From Methylophilaceae bacterium (GTDB lineage Bacteria > Pseudomonadota > Gammaproteobacteria > Burkholderiales > Methylophilaceae), in assembly GCA_035761085.1 (NCBI GenBank), contig DASTRT010000089.1, positions 1 to 25,223 of the forward strand: DNA of 25,223 nucleotides, written 5' to 3'. The notes under the pieces are model-generated. The model had not been told where the DNA came from. It worked only from the letters and a program-made list of their open reading frames with translations, and did no database searches. Every line of letters starts with the position of its first letter. The stretch's first letter is position 1. This document shows positions 909 to 4,139 of this stretch, one piece after another. The position numbers were made by a program, and so were the translations under genes.

Positions 909-2498
909 TTGTCTATTGAAACAAGCACGACCCCTGGCTTTAACGAGCTCGGGCTGATTGAACCCTTGCTGCGCGCGATTAACGACGCCGGCTACACCAC
1001 GCCTACGCCGATTCAACAAAAGGCGATTCCACAAGTATTGAATGGCGGCGACCTCATGGCCGGCGCCCAAACCGGCACCGGCAAGACCGCTGGCTTCACG
1101 CTACCCATCCTGCAGCTCTTGAGCCAGAAGAAGGCCAATGGCTCGACCGTGGGTCGGCCGCGCTGCCTGATCCTCTCGCCGACACGTGAACTCGCAGCGC
1201 AGATCGAGGAATCAGTGCAGACCTATGGCAAATATCTGCCCCTCAAGTCCTACGTGATTTTCGGCGGCGTGAACATCAACCCGCAAACAGCGCGCTTCAA
1301 GAAGCCGCTGGATATCCTGGTGGCAACACCTGGCCGTCTGCTCGACCACGCAGGCCAGAATACGATTGATTTGTCAGGCGTTGAAATCCTGGTGCTGGAC
1401 GAAGCCGACCGCATGCTGGACATGGGCTTTATCCGCGATATCAAGAAAATTCTCGCGCTGCTGCCCAAGCAACGGCAGAACCTGCTGTTCTCGGCGACCT
1501 TCTCCGATGAGATAAAGGCGCTGGCAGATGGCCTGCTGCATAACCCGGGCTTTGTCGAGGTGGCACGCCGCAACACGGCATCCGAGCTCGTGGAGCAGAC
1601 CGTGCATCTGGTGAGCCAGAAGCAGAAGCGCGACTTCATGAGCCATCTCATTCAGCTGCATGACTGGCAGCAGGTACTGATTTTCACGCGCACCAAACAC
1701 GGCGCAAATCGCCTGGCCGAGAAGCTCGGTAAGGACGGCATCACCGCCGCCGCAATCCATGGCAACAAGAGCCAGGGCGCGCGCACCAAGGCGCTGGCGG
1801 ATTTCAAGAGCGGCTCCGTACGCGCATTGGTAGCTACCGACATCGCCGCACGCGGGCTGGATATCGACCAGTTACCGCAAGTGGTGAATTTTGAATTGCC
1901 TAACGTACCGGAAGACTACGTGCATCGCATCGGCCGTACTGGCCGTGCGGGTTCCACGGGCGCCGCGATTTCGCTGGTAGATCACGAAGAGCTCAAGCTG
2001 CTCAAGGATATCGAGCGCCTGATCAAGCGCGAACTGCCCAAGGTGACGGTGGATGGCTTCATCCCCAACGCCAATCCGGAACCGGAAGCACCGCGCCCTC
2101 CTCGCCAGCAACAACAGCGCAGGCCGCAAGGTGTCAAAGCGGAAGGTCAGCGTCAGGGACAGGGCCAACGCCAAAGGCAGGCGCAAGGGCAAGGCCAGCG
2201 CCAGAGCCAGGCAAATGGCCAAAAGCCCAATGGCCAGAAGAAGAGTGCCAACGGACAGGCACAACGTAATGGCCAGCCCGGCAATGGTGAGAATCGTAAC
2301 CAGTCGAGCAACAACCGCTCACGCAATAGCCAGGCACGCGGCCAAGGCAACCAGACTGGCAACAAGCCGGCCCAGAAGAGCAATTCAGGCAAGCCGATGT
2401 CCGAAGCTGCCCGTCATCAGGCACAGCCGCAGGAGTCTTTCCTCGCCCGAAGCCTGGGCACGCTAGGCAAGATGGCCAGAGGCAAATTCTCGTTCTGA
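909..2498 (+). CDS. rhlE: DEAD-box ATP-dependent RNA helicase RhlE with a long Q/G/N/R-rich C-terminal tail
   Basis: Q motif (TPTPIQ), [36 protein letters not shown] and [10 protein letters not shown] are all present. TTG start after GGAG. Confidence 0.93.
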
Positions 2499-2551
2499 GC
2501 AATACAAACCGTTCTTCGCACTCGCCGGAGAGCGGCTTTATCAGTCAGCTT

Positions 2552-2628
2552 AGTTATACTAAGAATACAATTGCCTTAGTATAACTTGCTTGGTTATACT
2601 AAATTTATAAATATTTTAGTATAACCAA
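2552..2628. repeat. Two tandem palindromes, GTTATACTAA-N13-TTAGTATAAC, with 40-bp period; probable operator
   Basis: Unit 1: AGTTATACTAAG (2552-2563) / CTTAGTATAACT (2575-2586), a perfect 12-bp inverted repeat. Unit 2: TTGGTTATACTAAA (2590-2603) / TTTAGTATAACCAA (2615-2628), a perfect 14-bp inverted repeat. Both have 11-nt spacers that differ in sequence. The confidence refers to the repeat; the operator role is inferred. Confidence 0.9.
2571..2600 (+). promoter_or_regulatory. Candidate sigma70 promoter embedded in the tandem palindromes
   Basis: TTGCCT (2571-2576), 18 bp, TATACT (2595-2600), in an AT-rich stretch 28 bp before the ATG at 2629. Confidence 0.5.
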
Positions 2629-3681
2629 ATGGAAATGGAACCCTTCTTTACTGAGCTGACTTCTACCGCGCAGACCTCCTACGCGCAGTTGGTGGATGCT
2701 GCGCTTGTTGCAGAGCACATGCGATCAGTAGCTGATTTGTCAGGCTCTTTTTCCCATAAAATCGTGAAAGGCCGCAAATACTGGTATTACCAATATAGCG
2801 AGCCTTCCGGCAAGCTGAAGCAGGTATTTGTGGGACCGGATAATGAAGCGGTACGAGGTCTGATGGCACTCAAGAATAAGCCTCCCGTGACCAGGAATCT
2901 GGCTCCCTTGGCTGCCTCTGCAGTGGCATTGGGTTGCGCTGATATCCTGCCGCGTCATTTGCGCGTGATCCTGCGGCTCTCTGAATACGGGTTTTTTCGT
3001 GCCGGCGGAGTGCTTATTGGCACACATGCTTTTCTCGCTTACGGCAATATGCTTGGCGTCCGCTGGGGCGAATCCTCGCGTACCCAAGATATTGATTTCG
3101 CCCATTCCGGCAAAAGTGTTGCACTAGCCCTGCCTTCAAATATAGAAGTCCAGACGCGGGATGCGATTGAATCACTGCAGATGGGTTTTTTGCCCGTTTC
3201 TGGCTTATCGAACAGGGGTGGCGCAAGCTATCTAATTCCACAGGATCCCGGTTTTCGGCTGGATTTCCTTACCACCCTGCATCGAGGCGGAGAGGAACCT
3301 TATGAACATCCCCTGCTGCACGTGACATTGCAGCCGCTCAAATTCATGGAGTATTCACTGGTGGATGTGCAGCAAGCGGTGCTATTCAATCGGGATGGTG
3401 CGGTAATGGTCAATATCCCCCATCCCGCGCGCTTCGCCCTGCACAAGCTGATCGTATTTGGTGAACGCACTGGATCCTTCGCCGCCAAAACGAACAAGGA
3501 CCTGTTGCAGGCTGCATCATTACTTGCCTTTTACAAGCAGAATCGCCCATGGGAGATGGAGGCAGCGCTAGAAGATTTGACCCGGCGGGGCAAAGGCTGG
3601 GTGAGCCGGCTGGAGCGCGGCCTCAACGCTTTGGCGCAAAATTACCCGGAACTTTCCATCAAAGAGTGGCTTCAGGCATGA
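2629..3681 (+). CDS. GSU2403-family nucleotidyltransferase-fold protein (NTP_transf_8-like)
   Basis: N-terminal [17 protein letters not shown]...KQVFVGPD module, Pol-beta-type signature VLIGTHAF...RTQDIDF, and C-terminal [11 protein letters not shown]...KDLLQA. The family was recognised from motifs, not from a search. Confidence 0.8.
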
Positions 3682-4139
3682 ATCAGAATATTCGCATTTG
3701 GGTCGACGCCGACGCCTGCCCCGTAGTCATTAAAGAAATCCTTTTTCGCGCGGCGGAGCGAACGAAAATCGAAACCATCCTGGTCGCCAACAAGATGCTG
3801 CGCGTGCCGCCCTCGCCTTACATCCGCGCCAGGCAGGTACCCGGCGGTTTCGACGTGGCGGATAACGAGATCGTGCTTAAAACCGAACCCGGCGATCTCG
3901 TGATTACTGCAGACATTCCACTTGCGGCGCAGATCGTCGAAAAAGGCGCACATGCCCTGAATCCTCGTGGCGAGATGTACACCCCGCACAACATCAAGGA
4001 ACGGCTGGCGATGCGCAATTTCATGGAGGGGCTTCGCAGCAGCGGCGTGGAGTCAGGCGGGCCGAATGCCATGAACAACAGCGACCGGCAGGCCTTTGCC
4101 GCGGCGCTGGATAAATTCCTGGCTGGCCAGATTCGCTAG
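3678..4139 (+). CDS. yaiI: YaiI/YqxD (UPF0178) family protein
   Basis: [28 protein letters not shown] and ALNPRGE motifs. The start at 3678 overlaps the upstream stop (ATGA); the ORF-track start at 3549 is too long. Confidence 0.9.

Follow-up and report, generated by a model that had tools for sequence, protein, structure and literature searches.

Paired palindromes upstream of a GSU2403-family nucleotidyltransferase gene: putative operators, probably read by the enzyme's own N-terminal domain

AbiEi of Streptococcus agalactiae and Rv2827c of M. tuberculosis repress nucleotidyltransferase-toxin operons through inverted repeats that are arranged in pairs and extend as far as position -1 (PMC7319586). 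For Rv2827c there are two pairs of repeats, with a 13-bp gap within each pair, lying within -1 to -131 (PMC7319586). A preliminary description of the DNA analysed here, a contig of 25,223 nucleotides from a Methylophilaceae bacterium (the window, by which we mean the whole stretch), had likened two palindromes upstream of an orphan nucleotidyltransferase gene to the paired-repeat autoregulation of type IV AbiE/MenAT systems, and this likeness is accurate for AbiEi and Rv2827c (PMC7319586).

The nucleotidyltransferase belongs to the PF12281 or 'GSU2403-type' proteins, which are widespread and unstudied. Our literature searches returned no papers on GSU2403-type proteins in this sense, on PF12281 or on DUF6788, and none on the operator, the N-terminal domain or the function of the PF12281 family. 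We assign a probability of about 0.75 to the reading that this nucleotidyltransferase represses its own gene through its N-terminal domain, without a partner protein. Judged from sequence comparison, what would be new is the autoregulation of a toxin-type nucleotidyltransferase by a fused and hitherto unrecognised binding domain that needs no partner.

Palindrome array and promoter region

A search of the window found the 10-mer GTTATACTAA as exact matches at 2553-2562 (+), 2576-2585 (-), 2593-2602 (+) and 2616-2625 (-), which confirmed the four half-sites of alternating orientation that had been reported to start at 2553, 2576, 2593 and 2616. Together they make up two 33-bp palindromes, 2553-2585 and 2593-2625. 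The distal palindrome, which we call operator O2 (2552..2586, no strand assigned), has arms at 2552-2563 and 2575-2586 with GTTATACTAA cores at 2553 and 2576(-). The proximal palindrome, operator O1 (2590..2628, again without strand), has arms at 2590-2603 and 2615-2628 with cores at 2593 and 2616(-), and abuts the start codon. The two 33-bp palindromes therefore stand as first described, but their arms are longer than stated, being perfect over 12 nt in O2 and 14 nt in O1 with 11 nt between the arms in each. The spacers of O1 and O2 differ in sequence, and the start-to-start period from O2 to O1 is 40 nt. A perfect inverted repeat of the opposite (tail-to-tail) sense, with a 7-nt gap, is in addition made up by the two inner half-sites (2576-2585 with 2593-2602), and the four sites could thus pair in two registers.

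When one mismatch was allowed, these four sites were the only matches to GTTATACTAA in the 25-kb window. Shuffled windows gave an expectation of 0.18 matches at one mismatch, and none of 100 shuffles reached four; chance does not explain the array. In the 1,997,336-base genome the 10-mer has four exact copies, all of them within this array, where the GC content is 23% compared to 58% for the genome.

The nucleotidyltransferase open reading frame (2629..3681, plus strand) contains two in-frame ATGs at its 5' end, at 2629 and 2635. Its closest homologues are 348 amino acids long and start with MxPFFTEL or MxPLYTEL, their first residue matching ATG 2635. Translation therefore probably starts at 2635, 6-9 nt 3' of the palindrome, giving a protein of 348 residues rather than the 350 counted from ATG 2629; residue numbers below are those of the 350-residue form. 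The right arm of O1 stops at 2628, immediately 5' of ATG 2629, and the 33-bp core of O1 ends 3 nt 5' of ATG 2629 and 9 nt 5' of ATG 2635. No Shine-Dalgarno sequence of the GGAG/AGGA type was found 5' of the gene for either ATG, in agreement with the earlier observation that the array ends just before the start codon (2628/2629) and leaves no such sequence.

A consensus scan identified a candidate sigma-70 promoter at 2571..2600 on the plus strand, with a -35 element TTGCCT (2571-2576), an 18-nt spacer and a -10 element TATACT (2595-2600), matching 9 of 12 consensus positions. The candidate -10 element is the core of the left arm of O1, and the candidate promoter lies within the array. The claim that the array covers a candidate -35/-10 holds in that this 9/12 match falls inside it, but a -35 element at the expected spacing was weakly enriched at homologous loci (mean of 2.73 vs about 2.4 of 6 positions), and we place the promoter at 2571-2600 provisionally. 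Were the -10 element instead TAGTAT (2617-2622) or TATAAC (2620-2625), the mRNA would be nearly leaderless.

Palindromes of this kind could also act as RNA. They might be 5'-leader hairpins that block the start codon, or that stabilise or attenuate transcripts reading through from the upstream helicase gene; alternatively, the N-terminal domain of the enzyme might bind the hairpins, or the hairpins might be a substrate-like decoy for the nucleotidyltransferase. Two hairpins were indeed predicted, at -30.5 kcal/mol and with a z score of -6.0 relative to shuffles, and the proximal stem reaches the start codon of a gene with no Shine-Dalgarno sequence. Against such a role, if the -10 element is TATACT of the left arm then the gene's own transcript would be devoid of that arm, and no family in Rfam 15 was matched, the best hits (E = 0.23 and 0.54) falling far below the gathering scores.

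Linkage of the palindrome to one gene family

We collected 185 homologous loci from several proteobacterial lineages and from metagenomes, encoding homologues of 30-93% identity. An exact TATAC-N19-21-GTATA was present within 130 nt of the start in 160 of them, and variant palindromes were seen at the equivalent upstream position in other homologous loci. Among 80 betaproteobacterial loci (homologues of 57-73% identity), 76 carried GTTATACT-N-AGTATAAC palindromes 5' of the start, one in 47 loci and two in 29, and in 66 of these 76 no more than 12 nt separated the proximal palindrome from the start codon. Homologues of 30-50% identity, which came from other orders, from metagenome assemblies and from Shinella and Agrobacterium plasmids, were preceded by a 29-37-bp palindrome that abutted the start codon and was usually TATAC-N19-21-GTATA; a few subfamilies used other words (TTGCTAnAC, GTTAACCTACA and TTTGTGGGA). 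The suggestion that paired palindromes might be general upstream of GSU2403-family genes was thus borne out for the palindrome, present in nearly all homologues, but not for the pairing, as most loci have a single copy. The spacing of 40 bp, close to four helical turns, had also been remarked upon. It applies to this locus, but in the 29 two-palindrome loci the offset varied from 37 to 52 bp, with clusters near 39 and 44 that are about half a turn apart, so that 40-bp phasing is not conserved.

Conservation resides in the arms. Across the homologues the arms were conserved and the spacers, 75% AT, carried no information, which extends to the family the contrast between conserved arms and differing spacers first noted for O1 and O2. 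Changes in the arms were compensatory across the family, as expected if the palindromes formed RNA stems. However, the outer seven arm bases were nearly invariant even across homologues of 30% identity, which pairing alone does not demand, and at mismatched arm positions, read on the sense strand, G.U pairs (32) were not commoner than A.C pairs (43).

The distribution of the motif was then compared with that of the gene. Of the 201 genomes searched within the order, nine contain the motif. The gene is present in eight of the nine, each time immediately 3' of the motif, and the homologues concerned include some of 38% and 48% identity. The match in the ninth genome was asymmetric and due to chance. 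A site for a global regulator was considered and rejected, since the four half-sites in 2.0 Mb are all located here and the 200 other genomes gave this gene and the one chance match. The gene itself is patchy, being present in 17 of the 201 sampled Burkholderiales genomes. The PF12281-type family is represented in 439 plasmid records and by thousands of metagenomic proteins, and no relatives were found in phage records. Plasmid homologues in Shinella (L210) and Agrobacterium pusense (L211), named 'GSU2403 family nucleotidyltransferase fold protein', have upstream palindromes, and in the Agrobacterium plasmid locus GTTATAAG-N-CTTATAAC is present twice, at a distance of about 38 nt. No DNA similarity to plasmids was detected for the operator region of the window. 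As far as comparison of these loci can tell, the palindromes are a control element by which the gene family is accompanied across bacteria.

The gene is flanked by a DEAD-box helicase gene and by yaiI. No neighbour gene was conserved, the largest neighbour family being common to 7 of 80 loci, which upholds, for this locus and beyond it, the earlier remark that no antitoxin or regulator gene is adjacent. The C-terminal tail of the RhlE-like helicase (909-2498), which begins near residue 395 and is about 130 residues long, is of low complexity, with much Gln, Gly, Asn and Arg. One divergent homologue (L114/L115 1762-2253) adjoins a convergent PIN / PhdYeFM toxin-antitoxin pair, which suggests that in some genomes the gene resides in islands rich in toxin-antitoxin systems.

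Comparison with the genome of a family member lacking the gene (G127) showed that flank homology stops at 2432 and restarts at 3696. The operators and the gene are therefore part of a 1.26-kb insertion (2433..3695, plus strand), which comprises a new end for the helicase gene, both operators, the gene for the nucleotidyltransferase and the initial codons of yaiI. The GC content of the nucleotidyltransferase gene is 0.53-0.54, compared to 0.58-0.62 in the flanks. In the same-family genome without the gene, the helicase gene is followed directly by yaiI with an ATGA overlap (L125 1380-1540). The insertion replaces the last 21 residues of the helicase, and the nucleotidyltransferase stop codon now forms the ATGA overlap with the start of the yaiI/DUF188 gene (3678..4139, plus strand), a local neighbour that may consequently have come under the control of the operators. 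We rejected yaiI as a partner, since it was found beside the gene in none of the 80 other loci and is beside the helicase gene in the relative that does not have the nucleotidyltransferase.

That the unit is an insertion here, and that the family is frequent on plasmids, would be in keeping with palindromes that are recombination or mobility sites, such as the ends or attachment sites of an inserted cassette, and have no part in regulation. Yet both palindromes are on the 5' side of the gene, at least 115 nt inside the left junction at 2433, with none on the 3' side; what is conserved is their position relative to the start codon; and no recombinase travels with the gene. We consider this reading extremely unlikely, and the end of a mobile element was rejected as the main role of the palindromes because they are inside the junction and on the 5' side only.

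Regulators encoded elsewhere in the genome are common, and the palindromes could be bound by a different protein, an unlinked transcription factor that serves this gene alone, leaving some other role to the N-terminal domain of the enzyme. The linkage data argue against such a factor. The motif is confined to this gene, and the gene is patchy (17/201) and enters unrelated contexts as a unit of one gene, so that the factor would have to be acquired, and to co-vary with the gene, every time.

The two domains of the protein and co-variation at residue 63

The AF2 (AlphaFold) model of the full protein (pLDDT of 88.5) consists of two parts. The C-terminal part contains a Pol-beta-type nucleotidyltransferase domain (residues 111-316; 2959..3576, plus strand), identified by Pfam, conserved columns and fold matches. 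The PF12281 NTP_transf_8 profile matched residues 111-316 with an E value of 7e-48 and 163.8 bits against a cut-off of 26.3, and was the sole Pfam family at E 0.01 or better; the protein does not belong to DUF1814/PF08843. A homologue of 69% identity is named 'GSU2403 family nucleotidyltransferase fold protein' by NCBI, as are the plasmid homologues. The catalytic residues of the GG...DxD...D pattern are G125-G126, D154-x-D156 and D212, and in an alignment of 53 sequences G126, D154, D156 and D212 were nearly invariant. The G[GS], the DxD, the third acidic residue and the fold are those of the Pol-beta-fold nucleotidyltransferase superfamily. A sequence search found no solved relative of the protein. 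Fold comparison of residues 108-338 matched MenT1 (Z 9.5), the NTase-like 5uvd (Z 8.7), TglT/MenT3 (Z 7.9) and ANT(2'') (Z 7.9), and further MenT4 (Z 6.7), AbiEi (Z 6.6) and TM1012. The model thus points to a MenT-fold enzyme whose function would be toxin-like.

The N-terminal domain (residues 1-106; 2629..2946, plus strand), which we propose as the DNA-binding module, was modelled with a pLDDT of 93.7 as a helix (12-30), a three-stranded sheet (40-70) and further helices (73-100). The sheet is basic and aromatic, being rich in Lys, Arg, Tyr and Trp. A search of 1.84 billion representative proteins gave 276 matches to the domain, located at the N-terminus of proteins of the same kind or of fragments, apart from one chance match to a fibronectin-repeat protein. 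In the PDB, searches with Foldseek and VIA-align (wide) gave no convincing solved DNA-binding fold, the best match having a Z of 5.1 and the matches being helical only, and a fold search of Swiss-Prot models with the domain gave nothing convincing. Matches in AlphaFold clusters were mostly unnamed, and included a few N-termini of integrases or transposases at E about 0.01. Two profiles stayed below threshold on the domain, namely the integrase Arm DNA-binding domain PF13356 (12.9 bits against a cut-off of 27, E = 0.13) and the SSV1 D-335 Pfam profile (E = 0.05). Profile searches for PADLOC 2.0 defence systems and PHROGs phage families also gave no match.

The nearest folds in the ESM Atlas were DUF6788 clusters (TM 0.68), which in the Atlas stand alone or precede Fic, HipA_C or AAA_14 domains, these fusions being in Bacillota. 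The PF20586 (DUF6788) profile, with a cut-off of 27.2 bits, did not match residues 1-110 at E 10 or better and had no match in the organism's own genome; some homologues carry a weak or faint precomputed PF20586 match. In Pseudomonadota, true PF20586 genes were found in one genome, where they have a CxxC insert and one forms the start of a 581-residue protein, and no palindromes were detected upstream of the true DUF6788 genes of this proteobacterial genome.

We then asked which residues of the protein accompany changes in the operator. Immediately inward of the invariant TATAC the arm bases depend on the subfamily and are TA, TC, TG, GC, GT, GG, CT, CG, CC or AA. According to the protein tree, the TC variant arose independently at least two times within the TA-type clade, in a Thiobacillus group and in a Rhodocyclales group, and each TC group is sister to TA-type genes. 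A scan of all 350 alignment columns for residues that set the two TC groups apart from the TA type gave three, all of them in the N-terminal domain, and the only one with the same change in both groups was Leu63 to Arg; the sister groups of both TC clades retain Leu63. In the window the Leu63 codon is at 2815..2817 (plus strand), and the residue, which is number 61 if translation starts at 2635, is located at the start of beta-strand 3 and co-varies with arm position 9.

The residue-63 column was chosen on the first 93 rows, and 80 further and more distant loci were fetched afterwards by a metagenome scan. The final count covered 156 distinct proteins. All 112 proteins with A at arm position 9 had L, V, I or A as residue 63. 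With C at position 9 the residue was R in 22 proteins, K in 4 and T in 1; with G it was N in 5, R in 2 and K in 1; and with T it was Q in 5 and H, T, K and L in 1 each. Thus, 43 of the 44 proteins with a position 9 other than A had R, K, N, Q, H or T at residue 63, and the odd cases were a TC-type operator with Thr63 and a TT-type operator with Leu63. All 63 rows fetched after the choice of the column were concordant. The normalised mutual information between residue 63 and position 9 was 0.83, the top value of any column, the next best being 0.47.

A first test with 96 rows had provided four independent contrasts (p = 0.125), and the sample was enlarged before the test was repeated. On well-supported branches of a tree of the C-terminal domain, all six independent contrasts then agreed (6/6, sign test p = 0.031), the statistical support being these six contrasts for a column picked from a 350-column scan. 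The proposal that the palindromes would co-vary with the N-terminal domain is therefore upheld at position 9 and residue 63. Arg or Lys opposite G:C and an aliphatic residue opposite A:T are the usual look of direct readout in the major groove. In two genomes, paralogues have different operator words, GTTATACTAG versus GTTATACAAC in one and GTTATACTA versus TTATACCTA in the other (G045, with L094 and L103, and G191, with L087 and L097). Different words for each paralogue are, on these sequences, as expected for insulated repressor-operator pairs.

The co-variation bears on both of the regulatory alternatives. An N-terminal domain with no recognised DNA-binding fold leaves room for the unlinked transcription factor, but such a factor does not account for different operators at paralogues within one genome, or for an operator position that tracks a residue of the enzyme itself, and we judge it very unlikely. 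Like the mobility-site reading, it fits the data poorly. For RNA hairpins the position is different, as a domain that bound an RNA stem would give identical co-variation, and the MenT relatives of the enzyme act on RNA, their reported targets being tRNA acceptor stems (PMC10435456, PMC7450476). The pairing of an aliphatic residue with A:T would, on the other hand, fit a contact to the methyl group of thymine, which is absent in RNA. None of the points against RNA hairpins is decisive, and we regard that reading as unlikely.

Self-repression and comparison with known systems

As the arm sequence changes with a residue of the N-terminal domain, the gene is most likely repressed by the enzyme that it encodes. 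Binding by the protein itself is the most economical explanation because the nucleotidyltransferase gene is the sole constant companion of the palindromes and residue 63 tracks the arm base. The preliminary description had arrived at a downstream protein that binds its own operator, and this gains support, at the level of sequence, from linkage, from uniqueness in the genome, from the lack of a partner and from the co-variation of residue 63. We infer the act of binding, repression rather than activation, the stoichiometry, and DNA rather than RNA as the target.

In the model that we propose, the two palindromes would be the operators of a one-gene, self-regulated unit, and the N-terminal domain (1-106) would be the enzyme's own sequence-specific nucleic-acid-binding module. 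Two copies of the domain, in a dimer or as two cooperating monomers as in AbiEi, would read both arms of a palindrome. Conserved residues would read the outer GTTATAC, and residue 63, where strand 3 begins, would read arm position 9. Occupancy of O1 would hide the TATACT that resembles a -10 element, the probable start of transcription and the landing site of the ribosome, while occupancy of O2 would hide the -35 region, and occupancy of both would shut the gene off. A toxin-like enzyme of the MenT fold could thereby be kept low and self-limited without a separate antitoxin or regulator.

A more tentative extension, which we consider possible and not probable, is that the N-terminal domain represents an undescribed sheet-based DNA-binding fold, with residue 63 reading position 9 in what is nearly a match of one residue to one base, and that the gene is a one-gene addiction or defence module in which the enzyme on its operator serves at once as repressor and as a store of toxin, with related modules controlling Fic, HipA or AAA effectors in the same manner. 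A loss of binding, on plasmid loss, phage attack or DNA damage, would then derepress the gene and free the MenT-like enzyme.

If self-repression is correct, a toxin-antitoxin-like unit would be reduced to one gene with a fused DNA-binding domain of a new type, and solitary 'toxin' genes in genome annotation would have to be read differently. The match between operator and residue 63 defines a precise swap, L63R together with A9C, for which the model predicts a change of preference from GTTATACTA to GTTATACTC. The clean specificity classes also make the N-terminal domain a candidate source of orthogonal repressor-operator pairs. If self-repression is false, the conserved palindrome would still point to a control element, peculiar to one gene family, that calls for an explanation.

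Several known systems share features with this locus. The protein is a member of the uncharacterised PF12281 / GSU2403 family. MenT1 and MenT3 (TglT) match residues 108-338 best in structure and have the GG...DxD catalytic motif in common with the protein; unlike the present protein, MenT toxins have no N-terminal domain and possess cognate antitoxin genes, and their sequence similarity to it is undetectable. DUF6788 (PF20586) resembles residues 1-106 with a TM of 0.68, but its profile does not score the protein and the DUF6788 genes examined have no palindromes. The sheet-type integrase Arm domains (PF13356) gave weak profile hints, far below threshold. CapRel(SJ46), a single-chain fused toxin-antitoxin, likewise unites a toxin-type enzyme and its own control domain in one polypeptide. 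Its control is allosteric and triggered by a phage protein, and CapRel(SJ46) is not known to act by operator binding.

The AbiE-type systems offer a parallel as well. AbiEi/AbiEii and Rv2827c/Rv2826c have, as here, an effector of the NTase fold and paired inverted repeats over the promoter up to the start codon. In AbiEi and Rv2827c a separate antitoxin with two domains, one of them a winged helix-turn-helix, binds 23-bp repeats, whereas here there is no second gene. The module proposed here is, in contrast to AbiEi, fused to the enzyme and sheet-based, with half-sites of about 10 bp and cores 19-21 bp apart, and the enzyme belongs to PF12281 and not, like AbiEii, to DUF1814/PF08843. The repeats and their position are thus like those of an AbiE-type autoregulated operon, and the support for binding by the locus's own protein comes from the co-variation.
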